Shown here: positions 1,576-23,227 of the stretch, piece by piece
How positions within the stretch are numbered: the stretch's first letter is position 1
Layout of the letters: each line of letters begins with the position of its first letter
From: Spirochaetia bacterium
Lineage (GTDB): Bacteria; Spirochaetota; Spirochaetia; UBA9216
Direction: 5' to 3'
NCBI GenBank assembly: GCA_963675665.1
Contig: OY776510.1
Coordinates: 3,040,001-3,104,000, forward strand
Length of the DNA stretch: 64,000 nt
Translations under genes and position numbers: made by a program
Notes under the pieces: model-generated
Told to the model about the DNA's origin: nothing
The model's input: the letters and a program-made list of their open reading frames with translations, nothing else
Database searches by the model: none

Positions 1576-4500
1576 ATGAAGGGTGTCCGTAGTCTTTTTA
1601 CGGTGCTTCTCTGTTTTTACTCGTTTATTTTGATATCAAATGTTATTTCGCAGGACTCAGAGTACAATCACGCTGATATATCTTTTGACAATGTTCTTTT
1701 CAGATCCTACCTTGATACGGCGGACAAGAGAAAATCCTCGGAGCAGTGGCTCGATTACGCACGCTTCGGGCTTGAGAGCGCGTTATCTTCGTGGGAGAAG
1801 GAAATCATTCTGTTGCTGGGCGATGATTTCGATCTTTCAGATCTTCGCGATGACGCAGAGACGGAGCTTGACGAAATTCTGAAAGAGCGCTATGCCGAAT
1901 GGCTCAACAATAATTTTTTTAATTCGGTTGATCCGCCCTCACTGGGGGCTTTGAGCAGCGAGATAGTCGCGCTGAACGGGCAGTATCTGTATGAGACGGA
2001 CAAGAACGGGAATATTACATACAAGACAACAGTTAACTATTCCGATGTTTATACGACCGACGCGACGGGAAACGAGACGCTTGTACAAAAGGGCGAGAAG
2101 ACGCTCTGGGTCGAGGGGGTAAAGTCGAAGATTGCCGAACTTCTCGATGCCTGGAGTCAAAAAATGACGACGGCCTTTTCGGAGTTAAGGGCTTCAGTAA
2201 CGGAACTGGCCCTTCTTGAAGAACTTGAGCAGGATTACCTGCGCGATTATGAAAGCTATCAGGATAATTACCGCGATGAGCTTTACCGGCTCTACAATAC
2301 CGAACAGAGCAGGTTCACGAGGTTGAGGCTCTACGACCAGTATTCGCTTGAGCATCAGAGCGGGCAGGAAACTGCGTCAAATATATCGAACGAGCTTATT
2401 GCCGCGACCCGGGCCGAATTGAACAGTAAGCTTGAAGCGCTTGTAAGAGGATTAAACGCACAGGCTGCGTCCGGCGAAAGCGGCAACGGAATAGTTAATG
2501 CCGAAGACTGGCGCGAGTCTTTCTCGACTCTGCTTACGCTGGGAATGAACAGTTGGGACGAGGCCGAGCAGGAGCTTCTGATGAAGCGGATAGAATGGGA
2601 GCAGGACGCCGCAGGCGAGGTCTCCGACGGGGAAGAAGCCTGGGCGGACGCCTTCCGTCAACTGTCTGAAAAACGTACCGAGTGGATGAACGAATACCGC
2701 CGGACGCTGCAGGAAGGAAACCTGCTGTGGGCCGAAGAGAGCCTGGAGCTTGAAGAAGCAATAGCAAAGGCCGTGTCCGAGATAGATGAAAGCATAGCGA
2801 ATTCCGGGGCTTCTTTGCAGAGCCGGATAGACAACCTTGTAGGAATGCTTTTACAGTCTGTAAACATGATGCGTACGGCAAGGACCAGCTGGGAATACTG
2901 GATGGATCGTTTCGACGAGGGCGAAAAAGGTTCGTTTGATACGAGAGGAATAGATTTTGATCCGGATTCGATGCTGGCCGTTACGGAGGAAGTTAAAAAC
3001 AGACTTGATGAAGAAAAGCTGAATGAAAAATATTCAACCATTGCAGCTTATTCGGATTATGATCAGGAAGCCATGAAGCATGCAATGGCATGGATAGATG
3101 ATAAATACGGAATATATACGGAGGGATTGTGGTCCGAACCTCTGTCGTACTCAGACAAACTTGATATCTTCAATTCATATGACCCTTATAAATATAATAT
3201 CCCATACTATGGTCTTAATCCATATTATCTCTATAATGTCAGAAACCAATATTTTTCGGCTATTGACGATCTGTTTTCTGAAATGGCGGTACTTGGTTCC
3301 GTGCCTCAGACCGGAAGCGATGTTTATGACGAAGCCGTATACTGGATAGATATGTTCAGGACCTATCAGGAGTATGCCCTTGACGCCCGGCAGGGGCTTG
3401 CTGAAACCTACGGGATAGTTGTTTTTGACAATGCCTCGCTTCAGACGGCCTTTAACGGAGACGAGCTGAACGATGCCCTGCTTGATAATGATCTTTTATT
3501 CGATCAGGATTCCTGGGAATCTATTTATCTGGATGAGTATCAGGTGGAGCTTTTAAAGGCCAGGGCATACATGCAGTACTGGCGGAAACAGCAGGAGATT
3601 GCCCGGGCTGTCTATGATTACGCGGCCGACAACTCTTCCACCAAGGAGAATGCCGGGGTTACTTTAGGAAGACTCGCCGATGCGAAGGCAGCCTATGAAG
3701 AGGTCCTTGCCGAATACTCCGATTGTCTCGACAGGCTTTCGAACATCAGCACCGACCTTGAGACGCTGCAGGCCGATATGCAGACCATTCAGGAAGAGAT
3801 AGACGGTTACCAGCAGCAATTGGACGACGTTCGGTCTCAATATAACAGTGCAATCACCGATCTCGATCTGGGCAATGCGGAATACCTTGCCGGACAATAT
3901 CGCGAATACTACATCCGGCTTCTGGAAAGTATGGGCATGACAGGAGATTCTGAGGAAAGTCCGTCGACTGCGCTCGAAGAATACCTTCTTGCGGCCTCGG
4001 AATACGGGCTTGAAGACCGGATCTCGCTTGTATCAAACAGGATTGTCGGGCTTTTAAGCGGCGGCGAGAATACAAACCTGGACGGCAGCATGTTCAATCC
4101 GGAAACCGCGTCGCTGTCCGAGCTTGGAAGACGGATGCAAACCGTTTCGGACGCAGGCTTCATTTCGGGCCCTTCAACGGATGAGCTGTTCGGGTTTGAA
4201 GGAAACGAAGAGGCGATTGATCAGTTCAATGCCTATCTGTCCGACAAACTGCTTCTGCCGATGAGCGATTACCGCCATGACAAGCTGATTGAATACTTTA
4301 CAGCCTATACCGACGCGGACACGGAAGAGATTGAAAAGAGCAGGCTGCTCTGGCAGATGCAGCTTATTGCGGAGGAAGTCCGAAACGAAAACAGCATGAA
4401 CTATGAGCTGAGGCTGGCGGAGCTCAGACTTCTTTCGACCGACGACTTTTCGTCCTGGGCACAGCAGCACTTCGGCGACGAAGCGGCTGATGCCGATCCT

Positions 4501-7500
4501 GAAGGATTAATCGGAAGCGCGGAAGAATCCGGGCTGACCGGTATTACCGAAGCAGTTGTGCGGGATTTACAAGTGTATGAGGAAATCCTTGAACTGTATC
4601 AGCAGCAAGCCGATTCGGGCGGCGGGGAGTTCGTAATATATGAATGGGGTTCCGCACCCGGCGACACGCCTCCGGAACTTTCGAAACAGCAGGCCCTGCA
4701 GATTCTGTGGGACTACAGGGGCGGCGATACAGATGAAGAAACCGCATCGGACATTTTCGGGGTAGTCGAATCGCTCGGGGCCCTTGTTTCCTGGCTTGAA
4801 TCCCTCGGAAGTCTTGATGATGATATATCCGTACTCGAATCGGCAGTGCTTAATCCCGACGAGGCCCTGGGGCAGCAGTATCTTAAAGCCTGTCTAAGCG
4901 GACGCCGTAATCTTGCAACCGATATGGGCGATATGTATTCAGTGATCTATTCCGATTCCGTCAGCAGGCAGAAATACACAAAAGGGTTTGCCGAATTGTT
5001 GTCGGAAAATATCGATTACGCGCCCTGTCTGTCGGCTTACGGATATGAAAAATCCCGCGCGGGGCTGATAGAGATGCTTGCGCAGTTCGGGATAATAGAT
5101 GCCGATACCCTGATTTTTCATGCTCCCGAGGCCGTTTGGGAAGTCCGGGGATTTTCAACCGTCGAGGAAGTGGCCGGTTTCTTTACCGGGCTTGATAAGG
5201 CGGCATCGGGCCTTCAACTGCCTGAATATCTTGCGGAGATCTTTGAAGGGTACAGAGGCGAGCTGAAGGATTATTTCGCTATAAGGACCGCTTCGGCATT
5301 TTTCGGGGAGTTTTCCGGCGATCCGGGTCCTGTTAACGAAAAAATCAGGCTTGTAACGAACAGCATGAGCAGTCTGGGAGCGTTGACGGGCACACTTCAG
5401 AAAAGCAGTGATCAGAGCGTGAAACTTTTGGCTCTGGCCGTCTCCGATGATGTTTCGGACGAATTGCGGGAGGAAGCGGATTTTCGGCTGATAGAGACCG
5501 CTGGATTCGATCTGGCGGCCGACGCTCTGGACACGGACGGTTTCAGCGGCGCCGGGGCTGAATGGAACGAATTGTTCGACAATTATATATCAGCGGTGAG
5601 GACCGGCCTTGGTCAGGAAGACGGAATAGAGGACTACCGTTCGGCCATGACAGACCGGGCAGCGGAGCTTTGGGAGCTGTCTATTGCACTTGCCGATCCT
5701 GATTCGGTAGATCCGGACAGCGCTCCGGAACAATGGCTTGAATCCTACAGCGCCATGATCTGGAACAGTTTTGACTTTGACGAGGCGCTTGACCGGATTA
5801 CCGGGACCGACAGTACGATAAATATTTCTCAGCTTGAGCAACTTCGAATAATAGATCAGCTGATGCCCGAAACCGCAGGCGATTTTCCTTCCGATGTTGA
5901 GCTGGAGTGGCTTTACGAAGGAAATGAGGTCCTTCGTGAAGTTGATTCGATGATAGTCCTGGGACTGCCGGAATTGTGGGCCGGCGATTCGTTTGATATT
6001 GCGGAAACCGTAAAAAGCCGGTACTACAGTGATGAAGATATAAGCATAATGGAAGATATGCTTGTTTTGTCGATTGAAGAGTCGGAAGCAGGCGTTACAA
6101 CTGTAGACAAGGCCGTACAGCTCTGGAATGATCAATTCGACGGCGGTTTGGCGGACGGAAGCATTGACGGACTCCTGAAGGCCTTCTGCGGACTGGGGCT
6201 TATAAACCCGGCTGTGGAAGCGGCAGGGGAGTATTCGGCAGAATACGGATATGAAGACCTTCTTGACGAACTTTTGGCCGGGGCAGTCCTGAGCGAAGAC
6301 GATCTGGCCATTTTGGAGGAGGCTGTCCTGAATCCGGCGGAAGCCCTTGAAGCACGGCTTGACAAGCTTGCCGAGCTTGATGCCGAAGCCCTGTCGGGTG
6401 AAGAGCTTTACTGGAACCTTGCCTGGAATATCCGCTCGGACGCTGCGGAAGACGACTATTCCCGGACTGCCGCGCGCGGCGCCCGGATTTTTGACGATAT
6501 TGAAGCTGCCGGAGTAATCAGTAACTGGATTTCAAGCTTTGACGAAGCAGGTTTTGAATCGTATTCGGAGGAACTTGCGGACCTTTTTGATTCACAGATG
6601 AGCAGGATTGCAGGGCTTGCCCAAAGCCCGGCCGGAGGCGTCTATGCCTCCATAGCGGCATGCGGTATCGGCGAGGTACTGGTTGAGCAGGCCGGATATT
6701 CGGATGCGGACGCGGCTGATTTTGTAAACTGGTTTATGACAAAAAAAGGTATAGACGAAGCATTCGACCGGGAATCGTTGACCGATTATCTGTCGCTGGA
6801 ACCGGATGCGCGTTTTTATTCGGTTTTGGCCGATTATCCCGATGCGGCAAGCCACTATCTAAAGAAACAGATAGCGGAAGGAGCGTTTACCTCAACAACC
6901 CTGTCTGTTTTACTTGACTCCGTCAATCTTGCCGATGAGACGGAGGCGGAACTGGTTGAAATTCAGGGAATACTCGATGATGTAGAAGTCTATAACGAGC
7001 TTCTGCATGGAGATTTCGAGGATTTTCTTGACGAACGTTACGGCAGTGAAGAACAGAAGCGCACGGCGCGCGAGATCTACATGAGGTTTATGGGCAGCGC
7101 GGAGGTCCAGTGGGATGATGCCGTGTTCATGCTGTCTTCGGGTTGCGGAGCAGGCGCAAGGGAGATTCTTGATAACCTTTCGTTCAACCGGACAAGGGGC
7201 AGCAACCTTAGCGGGCTTAATCCCGGATCGGGAACAGGCTCAAACGAAGTGTTCTTAAACGAGGCCCTGATGACGATCTATGAGAAACTCTACGAAAGAG
7301 ATGACGCGCTGACGGCTGAACTGTCCGCTCTTCAGTCGGAGAGGGACCTTCAAGTCAGAGCAGCGGACTATCTCGGTTCTCTTGAAACTATCGATTCCGA
7401 CAACTGGCGAAGCTTCCTGAACGATGAATGCCTGTCCTCCGAAGACGATGAGCTGAATCTGGTTCCCGCTTCGACGGTTGATTATAATTATTCTGATTAT

Positions 7501-10500
7501 ACAAGAAATCTTCAGATAAACAATAATGACGGGGACCCGGTTTTTCAGAATTTTGATTCGCTTACGCTTTTTTCCGGCACGGGTAATGACCAGCTGAATA
7601 TAATTCTGGAAGCCGCAAACTCGTATCTTGATTACGCGGCATATCTGACCGCGGCAATCAACAGCTGGGACGACGGAACAATTTCGGCTACCGAAACCAT
7701 GAGAACCCTTCATGAAGGGCTTGGTTCCGCAGACGGCAGTGATTTCCGGAACAGCCTTGAATCCAAATCGTATGCTGAAATAAATCAGGCCTATTCATAC
7801 GAGATCGACGCGTCGGTTGAAAACGGATATAAAGAAGCCCGGAGTGAGTTTTATAACCTTACGGCAAAGATAGAATCAATTAAGGAAAGCCTTTCAAACT
7901 TCGGCTACAGAAGGGCGCGGCTTGTCAGAATGGCTGCTATGGGAAGTAGTGAACAGCTTGCGGAGCTCCGGCCCCTGAACGACGAGATAAGCGCGCTTGA
8001 GGCTGATATCGACGCGGCCCAGGCTGAATGGCAGGAGCTGATAGACGGCGCCGACGGATACAAAACGCTTGAAGAAGAATACGCCGGTGTTTACGCGCAG
8101 ACAAAAGCCGCCCTGGAGGAACTGAATGTACTGAAGCAGGAGTATTCTACTGCAAGGGCGATATACGAATACGCTTCGGCAGGCTACCTGAGTATAGACG
8201 ACGAAATACTCAGCGAGTTTGACCCGGTAGAGACCGGCGCCGAAGACGATTCAACAGCGCCGGAAGACGATGAAACCGAGGTAGAAAGCGGAATAACCGG
8301 CGGAACAATGGTGGCCTCTGATGTTGATCTAGGTGAACAGACCGCGGATCAGGTCTACCGCGATGCCCTGCTTGCGACCATCAACAAGGTAAGTCCCGCG
8401 GAAAGGCTTGTATATATAAATGAAAAGCTTGCAAGGGCCGGGGCCGCAAACGATGCGCTTGAGACGATAATAAACGGAGGCTCCGTGACCGGGTCAATCT
8501 ATTCGAAAGACGAGGTCTACCGGGCTTATTTCGATAATTACCTTGAAACCTTCCGCGAATCGCTTGTGTTGAACAAGATCAATCTCGTGCTCAACAAGGC
8601 AATCGCAAGGCAGGAGACCGTGACCCGTGAAGCCCTGTCCGACTGGAATACGGCGATTAGCGAAAGCTATGGAACGCCGGGCTATCTTGATTCAGAAGGC
8701 AACGCAATCGTTCCCGCCGGACTTGACTCATGCTCTATAGTACAAAATGCCGACGGAAGCCGGGACATAAACTGGGACGGCGCCGGCTCTAACGCGGAAA
8801 CATTCAGGCAATATTTTGAAGCAAATGAGAACTCCGAAACCGGTTCAAGTGATTTTCAAAACGATCTGATGCTCTGGCTGGAAAAAGTCAGCGGGATAAT
8901 GAACGGCAGCGGGGCCCGGGACCTTTTCACAACCTGGGCCATGGCGCTTAAATGGGAAGAGTTCCAGGCAGCAGGAGCCCCCGGCGATATAAACGACAAT
9001 TTCTGGACTGATTTCCTGAATAAAAACGGCGAAGGCGACCTGGACCGCGAAGGCGCCAGGACCCTGCTCATTACAGAATGGCAAAACGCCTTTAATAAGG
9101 TTAATTCCTGCACCGGTGAAAATAAACGGCTGTACAGTTTTTACAAGCTGCTCGATAAGGGCGGAATAATGCAGCTGAATACTGAAACAACAACGGGCGA
9201 CAGTTTTGAGACCTTTGATCTTCTCGGAGAAAATGAAAGCGTGATTCTGGCAAACCAGTATTTGTCGGATGAATATAATCAGGATGCCAATAACTTTTTT
9301 ATTGCCTCAATTCCAATGTTCAGCATGGCCGTAGCATATTTTGCTGCGGCAACACTTGCGCTTGCAATTCCGTTCAACTGGGTTGCCGCCATAATACTTT
9401 TCGCTTTGGGTACGGCAGCGGCCCTGGGCGGGGCTCATATGGTTGGAGAAGGAAACGCGAAAAAGGCCGCTGCAGATTATATTCAAAATAAGATTGTAAA
9501 ACCTGCGGAGTATAACAGTACGAAGTTTATGCTGAATTTCAAGCAAAACACATCATTGATTCTTGATAAGAAACAGGTGTATGAAGAAGAGTTCGCGAAA
9601 TTACAGAGGATGGAGGGAGAAGCCGACGGTGATGAAATCCTCACCGACGAACAGCGAATCGGGCTTTTAAAAATCTCGACTATTGAAGCCTTTAACAATG
9701 AAGGTGAAGATCTTCATGCCCTTCTGTTTCAGGGCGGACTTGTATCGGAAACCGGAAATACCGACGCTGATACCGCGGCGCTTGAAGCGCTGTTTGGCGA
9801 TTATCAGGAAATGATGGACCAGAGCGAGAAGGACGAAAGTGTCAACAGCAGCCTGTTTATAAGCGCGCTTGAAGAAGAATCGCAGGACTACAAACAGATT
9901 ACCGCGAGAGAGCTTAACGATTACCTGACCGGAGAAGACGGCGTTGCAAGAGAGCAGGTCGAGGCGGAAGAAGTGTACCGGAGTGCATACTATCAGTATC
10001 TGGCCGAAGAAATAAGCCTTGAGGAATTTGAAGAAGCGGCCGAATCGGCATTCGGAAACCCCGCCTTCTCGGTAAGGGAACACATGCTGAGGCTGTATGA
10101 ACAACAGGCCGGGATAGCGGAAATAATAATGGGCAGCGATCAGTTTAACGCCGCCATAAGCGCCGAGTTGCTTGAAAGCCGGGAACTCCTGCTATGCGGA
10201 AGCGGGAGCCGAAAAGGCATTTATGATTACAAGATGAGCAATTACCGTGAAGTCAGGATGTACGATCTGCAGATGCTGCAACTTGAAATGAACGAGAAAT
10301 ACCGCAACTGGGAGAACCGGATGAGGGCCATATCGGCACGGGGCGAGCTTGAATGGAGCGCCGGCGAACGGAAGCTTACCAGGAAATACACCGAATGGCA
10401 GAAAGAAACAAAGCGCCTGTACAACAGGCAGTCCGAAGCCTGGGACGATAAATACCTTGACTTTCTGAGCGATAAACAGGCATGGCTTGATGCGGTAATG

Positions 10501-13500
10501 ATCCAGAGCACGAAAGTCGGCGACATGGACGTGCTCGAAAACTTCGGAGAAATGACCGGAGCAGCCATAGCCGCAGCCGGAGCCGACGTGCTTGCAGGTG
10601 ATTTCAGCAGCCTGGAAACAGATCCTGGCGCGCTTCTGTCGGAGGTAGTAGACTTTGAGCTGTTGGGGACCCTGCTTGAAAACGCGCAGAACCTGAACGA
10701 CTCGATAAACGATACGGAGAACGTAATATTTACAGCCGCTGCGCCGGACAGCTTCACAACCGCCGACAGCCTGCAGGCGATAAAAGACTTTCAGTCTGTT
10801 CAGAATGAAGAGTATGAAAAGCACCTTGCCGAACTGGAACTTGAGCGTATGCTGGAACAGGTTGAGGATGCCGAGGAGAGCTTTAATGAGAGTATCGACT
10901 CCGCCAATAAAAGCCTGGACAGCAATATAAATCAAACAATGAGAAACGACGGCTACACGCGCAGCGGCGGACGCTATGAAAGAGAGCTTGTGGTAGGGGC
11001 AACAATAGGCGGGTACGTATATGAAGACGGTTATGTGAGCACATACGATGATTACCTCCCTGAAAATATTGATTTCGGAAGCGAATTGAAGGATGCCCGA
11101 AACAATGTTGCGAACCTTGATTCGAAAGGCCTGCAGGGGCTCGTTGCAAGGGCCATGGAGAACATACGGGAGCAGCTGAAACGGATATTCGGTTCGGACG
11201 ACGAGACGGAAAACGCCGAAATGCTTGTGGAGCTTGGTTTTCCGGTGACTGTGGAAAAAGATAAAGAAGGCACAGTAAAATATAAAAGAGAAGATACCAA
11301 TCACTCCATACTTGAGAGCGTAGCAGACTGGGTAGGGGAGCATCTTGATTTGAATATGGATACAAAAGAAAACTCTCCCGAAATATCACCGGGATTATTC
11401 GGAATACATGTAGGCTACGCGCCCGAGTTTGCCGATACCGCCGATACAGGCAGGGAATGGAACGACGAGGGGCAGCTGAAAGACGAAGGGCTTGGCGAAA
11501 TGGGAAGAATCATGGGTGAGTTTATCTTCAACAAAATGAAGGAAGGAGCCGGCTGGGCCGAGGTGAACATGCCGCATTACAAGAAACCGTTGTGGGAAGG
11601 CGAAATTTTCGGAATAGAAGCGCCGAGCGCTGCGGACCTGACGAGCCTTGCGGTTACTATCTGCACCGCCGGAGCTGCAAGCGGCGCAGGGGCCATACTT
11701 TCAGCGACAATAAACCTGAGCGATGATTTTGCGCTATCTGCAATGGACATAGTCACCGGAGACAAAAGCCTGCTTGAGGGAACGCTCGACTTTGGGAAAA
11801 AAGCATTTGTATCACTGGCAGGAGCAGGGATTGGCGAAGGCGGAGATGCTCTAAGCAGTACCCTGGATCTGGACTTGGGAGGGGAACTTCTGCTTGGCAC
11901 AGGAGAGCAGATAGTAACAAACACCGCCTCTGGAGCAATAAACGCCATAGAATACAGCGAAGAAGGAGGGTGGAACTACAACTGGAACACCCTTGTGCAG
12001 AGCGTGGCCGGAGAAGGTGCAGTAGCCGGGTATGTAGGAAGCGCCGCAGGAACGGCTGCAACATTCGGCTTGAACGAGTTGAATAACAGCATCGATGCCA
12101 ACGGATTTTATCTTGGAGATCTCAAAATAGATCAGGAACAAATAGGCCGTGTAAACTCGATGATAGGCGGTATTGCCGGTGAAGCGGCAGGTTCGCTTGT
12201 AGACAAGGATTTCTCGCTTAATGTTCTGAATCTGGCGGATATAATGGCGCTTGCGGGAGTTGAGGAAGAGAACACCAGTGACCTCGGCCTGTTTGAAGTG
12301 CATATGGGTTTTGACGAAGACGGAAACTTTACAAGCCGCAACAAGATAGGCACCGGCGGGGCCCAGGTAAGCTACCGCGATATTTTGTTTGATGCAGATT
12401 CAGTATTTAATAATATGGCAAGAATAAAGAGCATAAACGAAGACACTGCGGCAGCCGCGGCAAACCGCGACGTGATGCTGGGGATAACCGACAGAAGCAT
12501 AGGTGTTGATGAATTGACATTTGATGGAGCCAGCGAGGTAAGCGCGTTGCTTAGATCGCAGCTTGAAGGGACCCGAACCGAACAGAGTTACAAGAATATA
12601 AACGCATCGATGCATTCCATGACCGGTGTAATAAACAGCGGCTATTTGTCTGAAGGCAGTTCCGGGTATATAGAAGGTGATTCGGCAATGGCTGTAATGA
12701 TGCGTGAGCTTCTTGAAAATGACAAAAGCGGCATCAGCCATGAAAACCTGTTCGAAATGTTCGGCACCGAAGAAGGGCGCGAGCAGTTTGCAGAAGCAGT
12801 CCTTGATGCCAACCTGCTGCTTGCCTACAATCAGGGTGACATAGGCACTGATGAGTTTATGGGCAGTGATATCTTTAATACAACAGGAAGCTTCAGCCTT
12901 GCCTATGAGATGTATTCCGGAGCATACGGAGAAGAAACCTCGGCAGTAGTAACGCTTGCACGGATGTTTGAAAGCGGCAAAGCGTATGCGGGAACAATCA
13001 CAGATGCCGATATACAGGCGGATATAATTTCACAGAAGGAAGCCCTGGTAAATGAATATTTCAAGGAAGATATTGCCAATGCCGATGCTCTTTTGGGAGG
13101 AAATTTCTTTAATGCTGAATCGCATATTAATGAGGGAATAATATCGAACAGGATGGAACAGATAGGTGATGAAATGGCGGCAATAGCAGCGGCACATCTG
13201 GCCCATCAGTCATTAGCTTCCGGTGTAACCGGATATGACTCAAATACCATAACATATAAGAAAACGGAGCTGGATGAACTGAAGAAAAATTGGCTTGATT
13301 CTGCAATTGAACTGTCAAAAATAGCAAATGATAACGGCATCAAGTTTAATTATGAATATGCTTTAATAAGCAAGAACCCTGTCATGAATGAGGCCGGAAC
13401 GGCGGCATCACCGGTATATGGGGGAACAGGATTATATACACTGTATGGATGGGAAGTAATAACCCCGGAAATGGCGGAAGCGACCGGAAGAGCTGTATAC

Positions 13501-14109
13501 AGTAACAGATTACACGAAGCATATGATATTTCCAAAACCTGGGCGGAAGAACAGCAGTATGGAACTGATGAATACTTCACAGCTCCGGAAGCCGGAAGCT
13601 TTGATATTAGCTGGAATTCGGGAGGTGCCGGGATTGAGATAGTCTTAACATCAAGCGATGGTGCATATCAGCACCGATTAGGGCATAATTTTATAAACAG
13701 CATTGATGCTATGACGGAGCTGTTGATATTAAACGGTTCGACCGAAGTGGCCGCCGGAACTGTTATCGGGGAGTATCAGGATTATAAGACAAACGAATCT
13801 ACGGGATCTCATTCGCATTGGGAAGTATACAGAAATATGAGTGAAAGTCTTTTTACAAATTATATACAAATGGATAACAATGATTGGTTAACGGAAAGAT
13901 ACGGCAGTAATCCCTTTACGGCATCGGAAAGAGCGCAGAACCTGAGCGGTTTATCGGAACCGGGCACATATGAATATAATATAAACCTGACAAAGAAATA
14001 CGCTGCAGAGGAATACTGGAACTACAGAAGCAATCAGGAATTCGGTATAGAGCTTTCAACCAGGACAGAATTTTTATTCTATTTAAGGATGATGAATCAA
14101 TGGATGTAA
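1576..14109 (+). CDS. Giant secreted protein (4177 aa) with coiled-coil body, hydrophobic hairpin and C-terminal M23-peptidase-like domain; candidate polymorphic toxin
   Basis: Uninterrupted 12.5-kb ORF with an AAGGA RBS and a signal peptide (MKGVRSLFTVLLCFYSFILISNVIS). It has Trp-punctuated acidic helical segments. The C-terminal HEAYD...APEAG...GGAGIEIVL...HRLGH...VAAGTVIG...STGSHSHWEV matches the M23 HxxxD/HxH pattern. Confidence 0.8.
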   Translation: MKGVRSLFTVLLCFYSFILISNVISQDSEYNHADISFDNVLFRSYLDTADKRKSSEQWLDYARFGLESALSSWEKEIILLLGDDFDLSDLRDDAETELDEILKERYAEWLNNNFFNSVDPPSLGALSSEIVALNGQYLYETDKNGNITYKTTVNYSDVYTTDATGNETLVQKGEKTLWVEGVKSKIAELLDAWSQKMTTAFSELRASVTELALLEELEQDYLRDYESYQDNYRDELYRLYNTEQSRFTRLRLYDQYSLEHQSGQETASNISNELIAATRAELNSKLEALVRGLNAQAASGESGNGIVNAEDWRESFSTLLTLGMNSWDEAEQELLMKRIEWEQDAAGEVSDGEEAWADAFRQLSEKRTEWMNEYRRTLQEGNLLWAEESLELEEAIAKAVSEIDESIANSGASLQSRIDNLVGMLLQSVNMMRTARTSWEYWMDRFDEGEKGSFDTRGIDFDPDSMLAVTEEVKNRLDEEKLNEKYSTIAAYSDYDQEAMKHAMAWIDDKYGIYTEGLWSEPLSYSDKLDIFNSYDPYKYNIPYYGLNPYYLYNVRNQYFSAIDDLFSEMAVLGSVPQTGSDVYDEAVYWIDMFRTYQEYALDARQGLAETYGIVVFDNASLQTAFNGDELNDALLDNDLLFDQDSWESIYLDEYQVELLKARAYMQYWRKQQEIARAVYDYAADNSSTKENAGVTLGRLADAKAAYEEVLAEYSDCLDRLSNISTDLETLQADMQTIQEEIDGYQQQLDDVRSQYNSAITDLDLGNAEYLAGQYREYYIRLLESMGMTGDSEESPSTALEEYLLAASEYGLEDRISLVSNRIVGLLSGGENTNLDGSMFNPETASLSELGRRMQTVSDAGFISGPSTDELFGFEGNEEAIDQFNAYLSDKLLLPMSDYRHDKLIEYFTAYTDADTEEIEKSRLLWQMQLIAEEVRNENSMNYELRLAELRLLSTDDFSSWAQQHFGDEAADADPEGLIGSAEESGLTGITEAVVRDLQVYEEILELYQQQADSGGGEFVIYEWGSAPGDTPPELSKQQALQILWDYRGGDTDEETASDIFGVVESLGALVSWLESLGSLDDDISVLESAVLNPDEALGQQYLKACLSGRRNLATDMGDMYSVIYSDSVSRQKYTKGFAELLSENIDYAPCLSAYGYEKSRAGLIEMLAQFGIIDADTLIFHAPEAVWEVRGFSTVEEVAGFFTGLDKAASGLQLPEYLAEIFEGYRGELKDYFAIRTASAFFGEFSGDPGPVNEKIRLVTNSMSSLGALTGTLQKSSDQSVKLLALAVSDDVSDELREEADFRLIETAGFDLAADALDTDGFSGAGAEWNELFDNYISAVRTGLGQEDGIEDYRSAMTDRAAELWELSIALADPDSVDPDSAPEQWLESYSAMIWNSFDFDEALDRITGTDSTINISQLEQLRIIDQLMPETAGDFPSDVELEWLYEGNEVLREVDSMIVLGLPELWAGDSFDIAETVKSRYYSDEDISIMEDMLVLSIEESEAGVTTVDKAVQLWNDQFDGGLADGSIDGLLKAFCGLGLINPAVEAAGEYSAEYGYEDLLDELLAGAVLSEDDLAILEEAVLNPAEALEARLDKLAELDAEALSGEELYWNLAWNIRSDAAEDDYSRTAARGARIFDDIEAAGVISNWISSFDEAGFESYSEELADLFDSQMSRIAGLAQSPAGGVYASIAACGIGEVLVEQAGYSDADAADFVNWFMTKKGIDEAFDRESLTDYLSLEPDARFYSVLADYPDAASHYLKKQIAEGAFTSTTLSVLLDSVNLADETEAELVEIQGILDDVEVYNELLHGDFEDFLDERYGSEEQKRTAREIYMRFMGSAEVQWDDAVFMLSSGCGAGAREILDNLSFNRTRGSNLSGLNPGSGTGSNEVFLNEALMTIYEKLYERDDALTAELSALQSERDLQVRAADYLGSLETIDSDNWRSFLNDECLSSEDDELNLVPASTVDYNYSDYTRNLQINNNDGDPVFQNFDSLTLFSGTGNDQLNIILEAANSYLDYAAYLTAAINSWDDGTISATETMRTLHEGLGSADGSDFRNSLESKSYAEINQAYSYEIDASVENGYKEARSEFYNLTAKIESIKESLSNFGYRRARLVRMAAMGSSEQLAELRPLNDEISALEADIDAAQAEWQELIDGADGYKTLEEEYAGVYAQTKAALEELNVLKQEYSTARAIYEYASAGYLSIDDEILSEFDPVETGAEDDSTAPEDDETEVESGITGGTMVASDVDLGEQTADQVYRDALLATINKVSPAERLVYINEKLARAGAANDALETIINGGSVTGSIYSKDEVYRAYFDNYLETFRESLVLNKINLVLNKAIARQETVTREALSDWNTAISESYGTPGYLDSEGNAIVPAGLDSCSIVQNADGSRDINWDGAGSNAETFRQYFEANENSETGSSDFQNDLMLWLEKVSGIMNGSGARDLFTTWAMALKWEEFQAAGAPGDINDNFWTDFLNKNGEGDLDREGARTLLITEWQNAFNKVNSCTGENKRLYSFYKLLDKGGIMQLNTETTTGDSFETFDLLGENESVILANQYLSDEYNQDANNFFIASIPMFSMAVAYFAAATLALAIPFNWVAAIILFALGTAAALGGAHMVGEGNAKKAAADYIQNKIVKPAEYNSTKFMLNFKQNTSLILDKKQVYEEEFAKLQRMEGEADGDEILTDEQRIGLLKISTIEAFNNEGEDLHALLFQGGLVSETGNTDADTAALEALFGDYQEMMDQSEKDESVNSSLFISALEEESQDYKQITARELNDYLTGEDGVAREQVEAEEVYRSAYYQYLAEEISLEEFEEAAESAFGNPAFSVREHMLRLYEQQAGIAEIIMGSDQFNAAISAELLESRELLLCGSGSRKGIYDYKMSNYREVRMYDLQMLQLEMNEKYRNWENRMRAISARGELEWSAGERKLTRKYTEWQKETKRLYNRQSEAWDDKYLDFLSDKQAWLDAVMIQSTKVGDMDVLENFGEMTGAAIAAAGADVLAGDFSSLETDPGALLSEVVDFELLGTLLENAQNLNDSINDTENVIFTAAAPDSFTTADSLQAIKDFQSVQNEEYEKHLAELELERMLEQVEDAEESFNESIDSANKSLDSNINQTMRNDGYTRSGGRYERELVVGATIGGYVYEDGYVSTYDDYLPENIDFGSELKDARNNVANLDSKGLQGLVARAMENIREQLKRIFGSDDETENAEMLVELGFPVTVEKDKEGTVKYKREDTNHSILESVADWVGEHLDLNMDTKENSPEISPGLFGIHVGYAPEFADTADTGREWNDEGQLKDEGLGEMGRIMGEFIFNKMKEGAGWAEVNMPHYKKPLWEGEIFGIEAPSAADLTSLAVTICTAGAASGAGAILSATINLSDDFALSAMDIVTGDKSLLEGTLDFGKKAFVSLAGAGIGEGGDALSSTLDLDLGGELLLGTGEQIVTNTASGAINAIEYSEEGGWNYNWNTLVQSVAGEGAVAGYVGSAAGTAATFGLNELNNSIDANGFYLGDLKIDQEQIGRVNSMIGGIAGEAAGSLVDKDFSLNVLNLADIMALAGVEEENTSDLGLFEVHMGFDEDGNFTSRNKIGTGGAQVSYRDILFDADSVFNNMARIKSINEDTAAAAANRDVMLGITDRSIGVDELTFDGASEVSALLRSQLEGTRTEQSYKNINASMHSMTGVINSGYLSEGSSGYIEGDSAMAVMMRELLENDKSGISHENLFEMFGTEEGREQFAEAVLDANLLLAYNQGDIGTDEFMGSDIFNTTGSFSLAYEMYSGAYGEETSAVVTLARMFESGKAYAGTITDADIQADIISQKEALVNEYFKEDIANADALLGGNFFNAESHINEGIISNRMEQIGDEMAAIAAAHLAHQSLASGVTGYDSNTITYKKTELDELKKNWLDSAIELSKIANDNGIKFNYEYALISKNPVMNEAGTAASPVYGGTGLYTLYGWEVITPEMAEATGRAVYSNRLHEAYDISKTWAEEQQYGTDEYFTAPEAGSFDISWNSGGAGIEIVLTSSDGAYQHRLGHNFINSIDAMTELLILNGSTEVAAGTVIGEYQDYKTNESTGSHSHWEVYRNMSESLFTNYIQMDNNDWLTERYGSNPFTASERAQNLSGLSEPGTYEYNINLTKKYAAEEYWNYRSNQEFGIELSTRTEFLFYLRMMNQWM

Positions 14110-15119
14110 TGATGAAGAGAAGAATAATTGCGATACTGATATTTGGGATATTAATAACGGCAACTGCATTTTGTGAGTATGAGATAAGGATTGTCAAGCC
14201 GCTGCCCGCGAAATATATTATGGAGTCTTATATCTGGCTCAATGATGAAGAGATTGTCTATAATATATCCGGGCATAATCCGAGTCAGTTGAGAAGATTG
14301 AATATAATAAACGAAGATGATGAATTATTGCTTGATGGGGAAGCAAGAGATGAAGATTACCATATTTTCTCTCTTTCCCTGATTAGTGTTGATAAGGAAT
14401 CACTAATTATAGGTATAAGCAAAGGAAGAAGTACTTATATTAACTCCTATTTTTTTAATTTAAGAACTAAAAATCTCGAAGAAATTAAATATAATTATCA
14501 AAATAATCCAGGCATTAAGTATCAAAATAATTTAGGGTTTAATGAGAATTTATTTGAATTTGGTGCGGGACGAACAGACGCAGGTTTTACTTACATTCAA
14601 AAATATCCTGAAACCGGAAGGGTGGTAAGATATGACTATACATGGGAAGAATCAGGCATTCAGAGGGTTGTTAGTAATACTGAATTTTTTAATGTCTCCG
14701 ATGTACTGGATGATAATCTGCTGATAACTCATGTCGAAGCCAATTTGGGAGTCAATTATCTGACGCATTTTGACGGCGATGGATTTTCCCGAGCAGTAGT
14801 CGTTCCAAATAGCGACTCGCAGAGGAGTTTAAAAACCAATTGGGGAGCATATTTTCTTAAAGACGGCAATATACTTTTCGGTGAGGATATGAACGATGAT
14901 ACCGATTATTTTGATCCGGATGAGGCATATTGCAGGTTGAGGATCTGTAACCGGGAAGGGGATACTATTTATACCTTTGATGATTTTTTGTATATGAGAG
15001 ATGCCTATCAATATTTTACAATGAGTCCGGACAGAACAAAGATAATAATACAGGGTTATGATATGACCATGTGGCCGCCGCAGACAAAAGCTTATCTGCT
15101 GGAGATAATATATAATTAA
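14100..15119 (+). CDS. Secreted beta-rich (propeller-like) protein; candidate cognate immunity protein
   Basis: Overlaps the giant gene stop (likely start at ATG 14109 or 14112). Signal peptide MMKRRIIAILIFGILITATAFC. Paralogous to 15363..16274. Confidence 0.7.
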   Translation: MDVMMKRRIIAILIFGILITATAFCEYEIRIVKPLPAKYIMESYIWLNDEEIVYNISGHNPSQLRRLNIINEDDELLLDGEARDEDYHIFSLSLISVDKESLIIGISKGRSTYINSYFFNLRTKNLEEIKYNYQNNPGIKYQNNLGFNENLFEFGAGRTDAGFTYIQKYPETGRVVRYDYTWEESGIQRVVSNTEFFNVSDVLDDNLLITHVEANLGVNYLTHFDGDGFSRAVVVPNSDSQRSLKTNWGAYFLKDGNILFGEDMNDDTDYFDPDEAYCRLRICNREGDTIYTFDDFLYMRDAYQYFTMSPDRTKIIIQGYDMTMWPPQTKAYLLEIIYN

Positions 15120-15232
15120 TATGATAAACGGAAGCGTTAAAAATGAAAACATGAACTGAAACATTTGCATGTTTATTACAGGATTGGTTGTTTTGAGGAA
15201 TACTTGAAGGTATTTCCCGAAATGAGAAATAG

Positions 15233-15361
15233 ACTAACTCCGATTATTTTGTTGATTATATGGAATCAAAATACGGAATAGACAACGCGGACTGGCAGGA
15301 TTATCTGAAGGCTTATTATTGGGAAAACTACACGATATATATGCAGGGAATGGGGTATTAG
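15233..15361 (+). pseudogene. Orphan C-terminal fragment (possible alternative toxin tip remnant)
   Basis: Open frame TNSDYFVDYMESKYGIDNADWQDYLKAYYWENYTIYMQGMGY* follows an in-frame TAG at 15230, has no evident RBS-start, and ends 1 nt before the ATG of the second paralogue. Confidence 0.4.
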
Positions 15362-15362
15362 A

Positions 15363-16274
15363 ATGAAATTTAAAAAATGGCTCATACTTTTATTATTAAA
15401 CATTATATTTTTAACAAGTTTTACAAATGCATATGAGATACGACTGGTAAGGGAAGATCCCCTCCATGTGATAAGATATCTGGGCTGGATCTCGAACCAT
15501 GAGGCGGCTTATTGTATTTACGGAACAGATAACATTGTTGTATACAAGAACCTGCTTGGAGATATGCCTTATGAGAAGCTGAAAGAATTTCCTGAACGAG
15601 TTATATATGTTGGTGATGATAATACAAAATATGAATTATTTATAGAAATTGGTGATGATGTTTATATATTAGATAAGGAAATTATGAAAATAGAACTATT
15701 ATCAACTCCTGATGGATATAAATACAGCGGGGGGCGTCAGTTACCTGAAAATATATATACATATAATATAAATACTTCACCTGGAAAGCTGTCTTTAAAC
15801 AGGGCTGATTATAAGAATTACGGGCATCTTGAAGCAGATATCAGGGATTTTGAACACTATAAAATTTTGAAGAAATTAGGTGTATATAAAAATGAAGAGA
15901 GCCCCGGATATTTAATAATCGGAAGTTATGGAACAGATTTTTATGAAGTTCAATTTGAATATCCGGAAATTAAGGCTGTAATTCCTATTGTTGAAGAATA
16001 TGGGTATGTTGATATAAAAAAACTGGATGAAGACATGTATCTCGGAATGTTCTACAGGGAAGATGTGGAATCAGATGATGAATATTCGAGGTGTTCGCTG
16101 CGGGTTTTTAACAGAGAAGGTGAAGTTTTTCTCGACTATAAAGACTATCTGCTTGTAAACCACCACGGTATTGGTGAAAGCTTTTATCTGAGTCCAGATA
16201 GGAGGTATATAATTGCCACCGGTTCAAAGACCCTGGGAAACCATAAAACGCTGATATTTGAATTGATAAAATAG
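15363..16274 (+). CDS. Secreted beta-rich protein, paralogue of 14100..15119; candidate orphan immunity protein
   Basis: Signal peptide MKFKKWLILLLLNIIFLTSFTNA. Shared motifs YEIRLVR/YEIRIVK, CSLRVFNREG/CRLRICNREG, SPDR and LIFELI/YLLEII. Confidence 0.7.
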   Translation: MKFKKWLILLLLNIIFLTSFTNAYEIRLVREDPLHVIRYLGWISNHEAAYCIYGTDNIVVYKNLLGDMPYEKLKEFPERVIYVGDDNTKYELFIEIGDDVYILDKEIMKIELLSTPDGYKYSGGRQLPENIYTYNINTSPGKLSLNRADYKNYGHLEADIRDFEHYKILKKLGVYKNEESPGYLIIGSYGTDFYEVQFEYPEIKAVIPIVEEYGYVDIKKLDEDMYLGMFYREDVESDDEYSRCSLRVFNREGEVFLDYKDYLLVNHHGIGESFYLSPDRRYIIATGSKTLGNHKTLIFELIK

Positions 16275-16410
16275 GAAGCTTTATAAAAGTAGATTGGTAA
16301 AAAGATCTTTGGAAAAGCAGAGATGGAGAGATTTGCTGATCATCCGGATTAATCAGAATTAGAACAATAATGCGGGAAAGCAAACAAGGATATAAGAATA
16401 CAGAACTGCA

Positions 16411-16523
16411 GCGTTAGGGATGGGAAGGGCGCAGGGACTTCGTCCCTGCGGTGGAAAACGGCGTTGCCGTTTTTTACGAAACCCCTGGACAGCCCGACCT
16501 TGCAGACTGCAAGGGAACGCCCG
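16411..16523. repeat. GC-rich multi-hairpin intergenic element (REP/MITE-like)
   Basis: Bounded by GCGTTAGGGA...GGGAACGCCC. Contains perfect stems cgcagggac-ttc-gtccctgcg (16430-16450), aaaacggc-gtt-gccgtttt (16455-16473) and ccttgcag-a-ctgcaagg (16498-16514). Only one copy seen in the window. Confidence 0.5.
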
Positions 16524-17011
16524 GGAAAAGAATTGAATACTCAGAAGAAGATGGGTGGAACTGTAAACAGATAACCTGTACGTAAATCTGAAATTGACAT
16601 ATTGTTCAATAATAGATTACAACTCTAAACCCGTCCGTGTTAAGGTTGGCAAGGGTGCAAACGCACAAGGCGCTTCAACACCGCTGATCTGCCTTATAAC
16701 AGCCGAGAAGATGTCAGACCGGGTATGTTTCCTCCGTATCTCGAGCTGGACGTTGTAAAGGATGCCTGAAGACCGGTGTTCAAGATTGTCGAACCCGGTT
16801 TCGGCAGGCTTTTCAAAAGTCCGGTCCGTTCGGGCGGTTGAGAAAGATGAAGAGCGTAACCGACAATGCAGAGGTGCTCAGAAATATCAGAAATGGTTTA
16901 TCCACTGCTTCAGAAAATTAAAACTATGATTGTAAAAAAAACGGCTTTCAGCTTACAATTGGAAAATGAAGCTGATTTTTTCGCAAATGTTTTACAAGGG
17001 ATAAAAGAGAA

Positions 17012-18442
17012 ATGAATAATAAAGATTTCAATGGCTTTTCCTCAAAAGATGAATATATCAAAGTAATGGAACAGGCAATTGAGAGAGGTCTTTCGGGAAT
17101 TGTTGTATATGATAAAGACGGTCGATTTATATATTGTAATAAAATACTGGAAATCCTGACGGGAATGCCGAGAGAACTGCTTGAATTGTCATCAGTAGAA
17201 GAATTAAAGGAACGGGAAAAACACGGAAGTTCTACAACCCTTATGGTCCTTGAAAAGAAAGAAGAAGTTCTTATTGAGCAGAATATGGTACATAACGGCA
17301 AATCTTATATTGCAAAGGGAATACCTTTTTTTGATGAAAATGATGAATTGAAATATGTGATTTCCAATATTATTGATATACCGCGGTTAGTGGATCTAAA
17401 AAAGAAACTTGAGAAAAACAATGATAGTGTCAAAAATGATAAAATCCTGAAAAATATGGGTTACGATCAAACAGATCTGGATGACAAGTTATTAATTTAC
17501 AGCAGCAGAGGGATGCAGAAGGTGATGGAAAAAATTCAGATGCTTAAAAGTTCTTCTGCAACTGTGCTGATTCAGGGAGAATCTGGAACGGGCAAAGAAG
17601 TTATTGCCAAAGTATTGCATGAAATCAGTGAAAGGAGAAATGAGAAATATGTGAAGATTAATTGTGGGGCAATTCCTGAAGCTTTATTTGAATCAGAATT
17701 GTTTGGTTATGCATCAGGTTCATTTACGGGTGGACATGCAAAAGGTAAAAAAGGATTGCTCGAGCATGCAAATAACGGTACGGTACTGCTTGATGAAATC
17801 AGCGAGATTCCTGTTAATTTGCAGTCAAAAATCTTAAGAGTATTGCAGGAAGGTGAATTACAGAAGATAGGCAGCAATGAACCTGTTAAAGTGGATATCA
17901 GATTTATCGCTGCATCCAATCTTGATCTGGCTGAGTTGGTTAAATCCGGTAAATTCAGAAGCGACCTGTATTACCGTTTGAATGTTATCCCGCTTGTATT
18001 GCCGCCGCTGCGTGAGCGGAAAGAAGATATTCCTCCATTGACATACCATTTTCTTCAGAAGCTTAACCGTAAATACTGTATGCAGAAGAAAATCTGTAAT
18101 GATGTAATCATTCAAATGCAAAAGATGATATTTAAAGGAAATATCAGAGAGCTCGAGAATCTGATCGAAAGGCTTTACTTTTTTTCAAAATCATCTGAAA
18201 TAACTGTTGAAGATTTCCTGCAGATGCAGACGGCATATGATTCATACGTAACGGAACAGAATGTGGGCGAACTTCAGCAATTGGATTATGGCAGGAGTTT
18301 GGATGAGTTGATGAACAGCCACGAAGAAAAAATACTTCGCCACTATAAATCTCTTTATGGAAGTTCAAGAAAAATCGCAGGAGTTCTTGATGTTGATCAG
18401 TCTACTATTTCCAGAAAATTTAAGAAATATAATATAAAATAA
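17012..18442 (+). CDS. PAS-domain sigma54-interacting transcriptional activator (RocR/TyrR-like EBP)
   Basis: N-terminal PAS-like region, Walker A GESGTGKE, INCGAIPE.LFESELFG, GSFTGG (GAFTGA loop), LLDEI, FRSDLYYRLNV and a C-terminal HTH. Confidence 0.92.
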   Translation: MNNKDFNGFSSKDEYIKVMEQAIERGLSGIVVYDKDGRFIYCNKILEILTGMPRELLELSSVEELKEREKHGSSTTLMVLEKKEEVLIEQNMVHNGKSYIAKGIPFFDENDELKYVISNIIDIPRLVDLKKKLEKNNDSVKNDKILKNMGYDQTDLDDKLLIYSSRGMQKVMEKIQMLKSSSATVLIQGESGTGKEVIAKVLHEISERRNEKYVKINCGAIPEALFESELFGYASGSFTGGHAKGKKGLLEHANNGTVLLDEISEIPVNLQSKILRVLQEGELQKIGSNEPVKVDIRFIAASNLDLAELVKSGKFRSDLYYRLNVIPLVLPPLRERKEDIPPLTYHFLQKLNRKYCMQKKICNDVIIQMQKMIFKGNIRELENLIERLYFFSKSSEITVEDFLQMQTAYDSYVTEQNVGELQQLDYGRSLDELMNSHEEKILRHYKSLYGSSRKIAGVLDVDQSTISRKFKKYNIK

Positions 18443-18516
18443 TGCATAAATGCATAAAATATGCAATTATGCAACATAAAACAAGAATAAATAGTGGTAT
18501 GGTGCATAAATGCAAC
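18442..18516. promoter_or_regulatory. Three TGCA-N4-TGCA palindromes; putative enhancer (UAS) for the adjacent EBP
   Basis: atgcataaatgcat (18442-18455), atgcaattatgcaa (18461-18474) and tgcataaatgca (18503-18514), located 160-230 bp upstream of a -24/-12 promoter. Confidence 0.65.
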
Positions 18517-18672
18517 ATATCTAATAAAAAATTGTCGTTTCTTCAGTTTTCAGGGACATATCAGATAAATCCAATAGATTAAAACCGTAGAAAATCCCTA
18601 AATCGTGAAAGTTTAGAAAAGAAAATCCTAAAAACAGACAGAATCCTCTATGCATATTTATTTGTTATGCTT

Positions 18673-18689
18673 TTGGCATAATACCTGCT
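18673..18689 (+). promoter_or_regulatory. sigma54 (-24/-12) promoter
   Basis: TTGGCATAATACCTGCT gives GG-N10-GC with TGGCA at -24, about 60 bp before the ATG at 18750, immediately downstream of an EBP gene. Confidence 0.75.
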
Positions 18690-18749
18690 AAATGATTACA
18701 AATTATCCGGATGGTAATAATTATACATACAAGGAGGAATAATAAAACA

Positions 18750-19748
18750 ATGATAAATCAGAGTTTTATAGGATGTCACTATGATATCGGCTTTAAATTG
18801 GGCAGCAAATTGAGATTCATGAGGATTGATTTTAATAAAATTATAAACCTTAATGAATTTCAAAAGGATTTTGGAAAGAAGTCTCATGAAATCCTTTTGG
18901 ATGTTTTTCCGGAAATTTGTGAAGAAATCAGAGGGATTACCGACGGTTTAAAATTCTCCCATGAAAGATTTGCGTCATGGTTATTATGCATGGCATGTTG
19001 TCTTTTTGATGAAGGCTGCACCGCTATAGGTTTCAGACATAACGGCAAAGTTATATACGGACGCAATGGGGATCTTCCTCCTGAAATGAAAAAAGTCTGT
19101 CAGAGTTTTTATTACAAACTGGAGAACGGAATGGAATTTATAGGAAACTCTTCAGCAATGATAAACTTTGAAGAAGGCTACAATAACAGGGGGCTTGCTG
19201 TCGGCATGACGTTTGTTTTTCCGGCTGATATAAAACCCGGATTAAGTGCGGTCTTTCTTGTCAGGTATTTACTGGAAAAATGCGGCACTACTGAAGAGGC
19301 TGTTGAAGAATTAAAAAAGATACCTGTTGCATCGGCATGTAATATTTTGCTTGCAGATTTAAAAGGAGATATTGCAGTTGCAGAATGTGCGCCTGAAAAA
19401 ATGGTTGTAAGAGCTGCAGGGGCTGATGATTTTATTGTTGCAACAAATCATTTTGTTTCAGACGAAATGCTGGAATATTCAGATACTGAAAAAAATAATT
19501 TCCATGCAGACAGAAGATATAAAACGGCATATGAAGCATTGAAAAATAAACAGGGGAAAGATGCCGTTGAGTATGCAAAAGAAATTCTCGGTGGACGTTA
19601 CGGATTCATCTGTCAATATGAGGAAGAGTTGGATTTTGATACTTTATGGTCGACTGTTATTGATATTACTGAAAATAAAATCTATAGAGCGGAAGGCAAT
19701 CCTTCAGTAAAGAAGTTTATTCAGGATAAGAGATTATCAGGAAGGTAG
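18750..19748 (+). CDS. C45 family autoproteolytic acyltransferase/peptidase (Ntn hydrolase)
   Basis: AGGAGG RBS before ATG 18750 (in frame with the track ORF at 18711). Motifs EEIRGITDG, G|CT nucleophile, GRNGD, EGYNNRGL and ATNHF. Confidence 0.85.
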   Translation: MINQSFIGCHYDIGFKLGSKLRFMRIDFNKIINLNEFQKDFGKKSHEILLDVFPEICEEIRGITDGLKFSHERFASWLLCMACCLFDEGCTAIGFRHNGKVIYGRNGDLPPEMKKVCQSFYYKLENGMEFIGNSSAMINFEEGYNNRGLAVGMTFVFPADIKPGLSAVFLVRYLLEKCGTTEEAVEELKKIPVASACNILLADLKGDIAVAECAPEKMVVRAAGADDFIVATNHFVSDEMLEYSDTEKNNFHADRRYKTAYEALKNKQGKDAVEYAKEILGGRYGFICQYEEELDFDTLWSTVIDITENKIYRAEGNPSVKKFIQDKRLSGR

Positions 19749-19754
19749 AGAGAT

Positions 19755-21520: not shown

Positions 21521-21552
21521 CAAATTAAACTGCAAAATATCAGGAGTACTTA

Positions 21553-23193: not shown

Positions 23194-23227
23194 TTATATT
23201 CAAATTGTATATTAACTGGAGAAGAAA

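Follow-up and report, generated by a model that had tools for sequence, protein, structure and literature searches.

A candidate polymorphic-toxin-like locus in a spirochaete: a giant exported protein with an M23-like tip and downstream secreted partners

Results

Organization of the locus

The window analysed here, a stretch of 64,000 nucleotides from contig OY776510.1 of a Spirochaetia bacterium (GenBank assembly GCA_963675665.1, positions 3,040,001 to 3,104,000 of the forward strand), encodes a giant protein of 4177 amino acids (P0001, hereafter W), directly followed by two genes for predicted secreted proteins that we refer to as partner 1 and partner 2. Residue numbers refer to W throughout. 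The features of the locus, all on the plus strand, are as follows.

1576..14109, plus strand: giant gene, an uninterrupted open reading frame (ORF) of 4177 amino acids with an isoelectric point of 4.1 and an aspartate plus glutamate content of 18.5%
1576..1650, plus strand: signal-peptide-like segment (residues 1-25), predicted from hydropathy, with hydrophobic residues 6-24 behind a basic start
9295..9411, plus strand: two adjoining hydrophobic helices, residues 2574-2612, that probably form a membrane hairpin (Kyte-Doolittle windows 1.8-2.2)
10213..12060, plus strand: most widely conserved region of the body (residues 2880-3495), with a Gly/Ala/Ser-rich stretch and matches in 109 of 401 class genomes
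12049..12087, plus strand: recombination breakpoint against the sister-genome protein P0004 (about residues 3495-3500), placed by the drop of identity in the alignment
12286..12375, plus strand: family-wide junction motif GLFEVHMG...GTGGAQVSY (residues 3571-3600), from the alignment of 15 family members
12757..13185, plus strand: tail subdomain A (residues 3728-3870), helical, modelled by AlphaFold2 (AF2) with a predicted local distance difference test (pLDDT) score of 80-90
13483..13860, plus strand: M23-like metallopeptidase domain (H3980, D3984, H4037, H4079, H4081), from motifs and homology
13861..14106, plus strand: C-terminal helical extension, kept in W-type tails (alignment, model)
14100..15119, plus strand: partner 1 (P0002, W_d1), a signal-peptide protein of 339 amino acids, candidate inhibitor or immunity protein
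15363..16274, plus strand: partner 2 (P0003), a signal-peptide protein of 303 amino acids, diverged paralogue of partner 1
16448..16467, plus strand: hairpin and T run resembling a terminator, downstream of partner 2 (by consensus match only)

An N-terminal start of the same type is found in most homologues of W, the hydrophobic hairpin is kept in the relatives from its genus, and orphan copies in other genomes start within the equivalent of residues 2880-3495. The initial annotation of this DNA had described a signal-peptide protein of 4177 amino acids without RHS/YD, haemagglutinin, RTX, VgrG or LXG motifs, and it was right on both counts: the frame is open from 1576 to 14109 with hydrophobic residues 6-24, and a Pfam scan of W at E <= 0.1 found no RHS/YD, haemagglutinin/FHA, RTX, VgrG or LXG domain, nor any domain of the type V, type VI or type VII secretion systems (T5SS, T6SS and T7SS) or of tape-measure proteins. 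That scan gave three matches, all of them sub-threshold, one being to the M23 peptidase family PF01551. An NCBIfam scan of W returned nothing relevant and an ESM Atlas query with residues 1-870 no usable match.

A conserved body ends in divergent tails

BLASTP comparisons of W with 14 other giants showed similarity that always ends at about residues 3500-3680 of W, leaving tails of 226-619 amino acids; between the tail of W and the 14 others there was no match at E <= 0.01. A conserved body with a variable C-terminus had been predicted for homologues of this protein, and the alignment agrees, placing the breakpoint at about residues 3500-3600. The closest homologue, P0004 (called as 3085 amino acids and beginning at the equivalent of W 1091), has an identity of 86-98% to W across residues 3301-3500; it is 88% in residues 3451-3500 and falls to 24% in residues 3501-3550. 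P0013, a separate ORF of 661 amino acids on the same 5,378,709-bp sister-genome contig as P0004, starts at the equivalent of W 3492 and has 82-92% identity as far as W residue 3641 and about 30% beyond it, with the M23 motifs kept, and P0010, from yet another contig, is 66-84% identical to W 3728-4177. Because the segment identities switch among P0004, P0013 and P0010 in this way, W is a mosaic of at least three sources.

In the 15-member alignment all tails diverge after the junction motif. Most members have a conserved module there, 'HE..R[DN]G ... ET.RAV..H ... YDSSADYWKL', which is followed by lineage-specific ends. In alignment A6 this module separates the junction motif from the variable end; its positions are listed here.

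L003, 20513-21385: 'HE..R[DN]G' module
L004, 20114-20986: 'HE..R[DN]G' module
L007, 12176-13048: 'HE..R[DN]G' module
Six more loci in the same alignment: 'HE..R[DN]G' module

The module belongs to no Pfam family and its only PDB match, to harmonin (E 0.0013), is unconvincing; it could be a new metallopeptidase-like domain with a pre-toxin or processing role. The W tail lacks this module. Read from the sequence, the tail ends are of the classic M23 kind in P0004 and L7, of a Cys...His kind in L3, L4, P0006 and P0009, and of an HExxH kind in P0008. Base composition also changes along the locus: the G+C content at third codon positions (GC3) is about 0.55 in the body, drops to 0.37-0.49 in the tail and to 0.30-0.34 in the genes for partners 1 and 2, and lies at about 0.35-0.40 in typical window genes.

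The tip of W carries the M23 catalytic motifs

The two motifs on which an M23-like tip had been proposed lie exactly where they were reported, with HEAYD beginning at residue 3980 (nucleotide 13513) and HSHWE at residue 4079 (nucleotide 13810). The M23 motif set is complete in W, comprising HxxxD (H3980/D3984), the mid-domain H4037 and HxH (H4079/H4081). An exhaustive search of 1.84 billion representatives with W 3560-4177 (E <= 0.001) yielded 15 proteins, and in an 11-row alignment (A3) the blocks R-x-H-x-A-x-D, H-N-F and S-T-G-x-H-x-H-W are conserved wherever the region is present. A PF01551 search left W itself under the threshold but placed a homologous tail well over it: P0017, a fragment of a family member aligned to W 3077-4088, scores 44.9 bits against a cut-off of 28.7. 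Of the 15 tail homologues, P0023, P0011 and P0010 reach 16-20 bits, and 11 more are without a match. By sequence P0017 is related to ten solved M23 proteins, including Csd3, TagE, lysostaphin and LytM (best E 1.4e-6), and the catalytic blocks are paired in the alignment of W with P0017. Judged by motif and transitive homology, the tip of W is probably an M23-type peptidase, as the initial annotation had proposed.

Direct searches of PDB sequences with phmmer of the tip and with the A3 profile gave no match. Structure modelling covered the last 456 residues of W. Foldseek of the tip model found nothing at E <= 0.001, and its 20 best rows are mostly M23 structures, headed by lysostaphin (E 0.014); a single-sequence AF2 model of the last 294 residues was unusable (pLDDT 32.8).

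Subdomain A is found ahead of different ends in P0016 and P0020, and in P0019, a metagenome protein of 491 amino acids, an eCIS_core domain (PF13699, 90.9 bits; eCIS, extracellular contractile injection system) stands ahead of a stretch with homology to W 3742-3872, so that subdomain A also serves behind another leader associated with toxins. The W tail itself is modular, since subdomain A occurs in these other contexts. A search of metagenome contigs with the A4 pattern confirmed none of 314 matches.

Partner genes covary with the tails

Partner 1 starts 10 nt ahead of the stop codon of the giant gene, with AAGGA about 10 nt upstream, and both partners have hydrophobic N-terminal leaders. This is the arrangement noted at the outset, an overlapping gene for a secreted protein and then its paralogue, with the qualification that the paralogy is weak (BLASTP E 5e-7 with 32% identity over 65 amino acids; in addition a collinear N-terminal match; 23% identity overall). 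ESM Atlas related partner 1 to PD40/TolB-like clusters (at 0.92, with 164 shared features), and we treat a propeller fold as a lead only. Prediction of a complex between the tip (A3 residues 205-456) and partner 1 (A5 residues 26-339) scored 0.00 and is uninformative either way.

The further proposal that the adjacent secreted gene goes with the tip is supported by covariation of the two, with two exceptions (L25, and the pair L7 and G400 o4) considered below. Among 5.8 billion clusters the one homologue of partner 1 is P0025, which is 77% identical and lies with P0010 and P0016 on one 167,544-bp contig. The W-type tail was found in six of 401 class genomes, and the one among them with enough downstream DNA for a check of the partner was G101, from a different family; here a tail that is 42% identical is followed by a partner 1 homologue which overlaps the stop codon by 13 nt and falls into two ORFs, with tblastn E values of 7e-16 and 3e-8. 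Other tails have other partners, as listed here (FGE, formylglycine-generating enzyme).

Cys...His tails (L3, L4): FGE-sulfatase-domain lipoproteins and a second lipoprotein
Tails of L24, L30, L50 and of G400 o3 and o5: F5/8 type C proteins
L23 tail: RCC1 propeller
G400 o1 tail: SH3_3 protein

In an all-versus-all comparison, every one of the 14 similar partner pairs from different loci (E <= 1e-4) came from loci in the same distal-tail cluster, the clusters being formed by single linkage. Most partners bear a signal peptide or a lipobox. We are confident, although short of certain, that the W locus represents a system in which tip and partner are swapped together as a cassette.

Truncated copies form tandem arrays in other genomes

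In genome G400 the gene for a giant of 3699 amino acids is followed by six truncated copies, which are 70-92% identical to residues 2362-3445 of that protein and then diverge. Three of these orphan copies begin about 25-35 residues ahead of the equivalent of the junction motif, and all five copies for which the downstream region was fetched have a downstream gene of their own. Three tandem copies of about 1200-1280 amino acids, each with a partner, are present in G389, and two tandem truncated copies of the same kind in G045. This layout of truncated copies with their own tails and partners is shared by Rhs and contact-dependent inhibition (CDI) loci. Orphan cassettes had been part of the initial description; they are present in G400, G389 and G045 and, in the form of P0013, in the sister genome, whereas the window holds only the paralogue of the partner, and a tblastn comparison of all giants with 14110-17100 and 1-1575 of the window reached a best E of only 0.33. 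At G400 an AcrB-family resistance-nodulation-division transporter gene (L039:148-3180) overlaps the annotated start of the giant, an arrangement unlike that in the window and at the other loci.

The family is spread across the class

A word-indexed search of 5.8 billion clusters, in which 1690 candidates were scored, found six homologues of W, and the body region of all six is without a Pfam family. The five loci that come from species genomes are all from metagenome-assembled genomes of Spirochaetales, Spirochaeta or Thalassospirochaeta. With W 2401-3600 as query, matches were obtained in 13 of the 41 nearest genomes and nine of 35 genera; with W 2880-3600, the 109 positive class genomes (80 of 306 when restricted to those of high quality) fell into 56 of 156 genera, and most of them had one locus and a few had two. 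The family is thus spirochaetal, as first supposed, and about one in four of the sampled class genomes has a member, although no Pfam or NCBIfam model describes its body. A full-text literature search, with subscription journals outside its coverage, found no paper on it.

In genus g21 (L051, L052, L053 and L027; genomes of 1.2-1.8 Mb) the members are shorter, at about 1930-2200 amino acids, and have two tail types, between which the bodies are about 35% identical and homology stops 330-420 residues before the C-terminus. The idea that g21 is a host-restricted lineage of low G+C content was dropped, these loci being 47-49% G+C.

Discussion

A toxin-like interpretation and the evidence that opposes it

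We favour, with some reserve, the interpretation that the W locus is one full-length example of a polymorphic-toxin-like system of spirochaetes that has not been described before and serves as an interbacterial weapon. In this mechanism the Sec signal peptide would export the giant, and the long acidic body, with its hairpin and its Gly-rich conserved region, would act as the carrier, the conserved junction motif (residues 3571-3600) marking the point ahead of the exchangeable tail. The end of the tail would be a zinc endopeptidase of the M23 (LytM/lysostaphin) type that cuts peptidoglycan cross-links in a periplasm. Partner 1, which is translationally coupled to the giant, would be the cognate periplasmic inhibitor, or immunity protein, and partner 2, a diverged copy, may protect against a related tip. 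The exchange of tails, the covariation of tip and partner, the orphan arrays of relatives and the conservation of the M23 motifs are observed directly; we infer that the tip cleaves peptidoglycan, that the partner inhibits it and that the protein is delivered to other cells.

Several observations weigh against this interpretation. As to the tip, W residues 4013-4088 match PF01551 with E 0.062 and 13.9 bits, under the cut-off, and the AF2 model from the 11-row alignment has a mean pLDDT of 65, its M23 part being poor at 30-65. As to the partners, L25 has an L24-like tail and a partner without detectable similarity, and L7 and G400 o4 have similar tails and small lipoprotein partners that are not detectably similar. 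The genomes with arrays (G400, G389 and G045) were picked for having two separate matches and are hence a non-random sample, and W's own genome has a single copy of the giant and no orphan tip; the broad spread of the family, mostly at one locus per genome, could also fit a housekeeping role. As to delivery, W has a signal peptide only, with no recognised trafficking domain or secretion system. Its genome lacks a secretin (PF00263; control positive in six of 14 reference genomes) and a T6SS sheath/VipB gene (PF05943; control positive in one of 14), and because it combines a signal peptide with the hairpin, W is predicted to be tethered to the inner membrane of the producing cell; no way through the outer membrane is evident. 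Secretion machinery is absent from the 14 neighbouring ORFs scanned in the window, as the initial annotation had stated.

Much of this would suit a different role, in which W is directed at the producing cell itself: a periplasmic scaffold, tethered to the inner membrane, that positions a peptidoglycan hydrolase to remodel the cell's own wall for shape, division or the accommodation of periplasmic flagella, with the downstream protein as its regulator or inhibitor and with tail diversity following wall chemistry or other pressures. The signal peptide together with an internal hairpin, a genome with neither secretin nor T6SS sheath gene, the one copy in that genome and the spread over 56 of 156 genera, usually with a single locus, are all in its favour, and the weaker Foldseek rows include EnvC and PcsB, which are coiled-coil regulators of wall hydrolases (E 0.19-0.4, low probability). 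However, the arrays, whose truncated copies bear alternative tails and have partners of their own, and the sharp mosaic breakpoints between near-identical bodies, would be left unexplained by such a scaffold, and the tip-partner cassettes common to different families also speak against it. Further, the W family is not a core gene, because it was not found in 292 of the 401 class genomes. We consider a role in the cell's own wall unlikely; if it were true, W would represent an unexplored giant wall-remodelling scaffold of spirochaetes.

Far less probable is that W is left over from a mobile apparatus, phage-tail-like or otherwise, or is cargo of one. W would then be tape-measure-like, a long helical protein with hydrophobic stretches that ends in an M23 domain, and its layout broadly resembles that of tape-measure proteins; subdomain A stands behind eCIS_core in P0019, and a cyanophage pre-ejectosome protein is among the weak Foldseek rows (probability 0.14). 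Against this, the 14 window neighbours scanned include no phage or eCIS gene, W has no match to a tape-measure family of Pfam and begins with a signal peptide, and the ORF lists and translations of L003, L004, L005 and L007, read without a Pfam scan of the flanking genes, have no obvious phage-like set. It is just as improbable that W is a surface adhesin or an anti-eukaryotic effector with an M23-like domain that has degenerated or acts on something other than the wall, for although the weak Pfam M23 score of W and the carbohydrate- or surface-binding types of domain in partners at other loci (F5/8 type C, SH3_3 and RCC1) would be compatible with this, all M23 catalytic residues are retained across W-type tails, the partners are directed to the periplasm and the alternative tails have other peptidase-like motifs.

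If W is indeed an interbacterial toxin, the absence of the usual export machines turns its delivery into a well-defined question that can be tested. One answer, which we offer tentatively and regard as rather unlikely, is that these spirochaetes have a delivery route of their own, in which a hairpin-tethered, Sec-exported helical carrier reaches the periplasm of a neighbour without a type II secretion system, T5SS or T6SS; contact or fusion of outer membranes, vesicles, or translocation by the Gly-rich region are possible candidates. Such a route, if real, would be a new mode of secretion or delivery and a first handle on antagonism among free-living spirochaetes. More generally, were the toxin interpretation to hold, polymorphic toxins would gain a new carrier architecture, and the tail-partner pairs would amount to a catalogue of wall-targeting enzymes and their inhibitors, with FGE-sulfatase-like, F5/8 type C, RCC1 and propeller-like proteins among the partners.

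Comparison with known toxins and wall enzymes

Effectors that hydrolyse the cell wall from the periplasm and are paired with periplasmic immunity proteins include the T6SS amidases, pesticin and colicin M. Like the W locus as we interpret it, these systems encode a peptidoglycan enzyme and an exported protector alongside each other; the effectors are small and are delivered by the T6SS or taken up from the medium, whereas W has 4177 amino acids and is predicted to be exported by Sec. The M23 endopeptidases lysostaphin, LytM and Csd3 have the HxxxD ... H ... HxH set in common with W, which differs from them in having only about 20% identity, a score below the Pfam threshold, extra insertions and a position at the end of a giant carrier.

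Polymorphic toxin systems of the Rhs, CdiA, MafB and LXG types have been defined by Zhang et al. (2012; PMC3482391), who list spirochaetes among the phyla that have them and describe wall-degrading tips of NlpC/P60, L,D-peptidase and muramidase-like kinds; the term M23 is absent from 300,000 characters of that paper. The W family resembles polymorphic toxins in its long conserved N-terminal part, its recombining C-terminal domains with a cognate gene directly downstream, and, in three other genomes, its 5'-truncated orphan tips arrayed next to partner genes of their own. Unlike them, it has a body without RHS, FHA, LXG, PAAR, VgrG or HINT domains or a recognised secretion partner, and this body has an internal membrane hairpin and falls outside the families of Pfam and NCBIfam.

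A resemblance to the very long TIGR04388 proteins of Leptospira had been raised in the initial annotation, and the kinship did not survive comparison by hidden Markov model (HMM), genome search, BLAST or hhalign. Membership, which requires at least 45 bits, was rejected, W and its genome both being without an HMM match; the model is found in 33 of 301 phylum genomes (31 over the cut-off), and 32 of these 33 belong to one family. TIGR04388 giants have no BLAST similarity to the 15 W-family giants at E <= 1e-3, and hhalign of TIGR04388 with the W family gave a probability below 1%. One W-family member, G264, has a sub-threshold TIGR04388 match of 28.7 bits. The TIGR04388 ('Lepto_longest') giants of Leptospiraceae-type genomes come from the same phylum and likewise have variable ends and small downstream ORFs (at two loci), but they carry a PT-HINT domain (PF07591, 56-67 bits) that is lacking in the W family. 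These giants can already be recognised as polymorphic toxins of another kind, and are encoded as follows.

L048:3507-12872, minus strand: TIGR04388 giant with PT-HINT before a differing C-terminus and small tandem ORFs downstream
L049:5763-12455, minus strand: TIGR04388 giant with the same features
L049:15233-19999, minus strand: TIGR04388 giant with the same features

Also at L049, the end of one ORF coincides with the HINT domain, and a Peptidase_C39_2 domain is encoded by the ORF after it.

Neighbouring genes in the window

Just upstream of the giant gene are two back-to-back ORFs of 177 and 204 amino acids (248-781 and 781-1395), which have no Pfam family and no signal peptide; with a G+C content of 26-28% and a GC3 of 0.18-0.20 they look compositionally foreign. 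Downstream, the region 17012-27045 has a gene for a sigma-54 activator (PAS, AAA+ and helix-turn-helix domains) and a cluster made up of two AAT-family acyltransferase-like genes and genes for an amidohydrolase, a sodium:solute symporter and a member of a Na+/H+ antiporter family. Further along, the minus-strand genes at 41684-49971 have a GC3 of 0.50-0.53, which is like that of the body of the giant and unlike that of most window genes (0.35-0.40).

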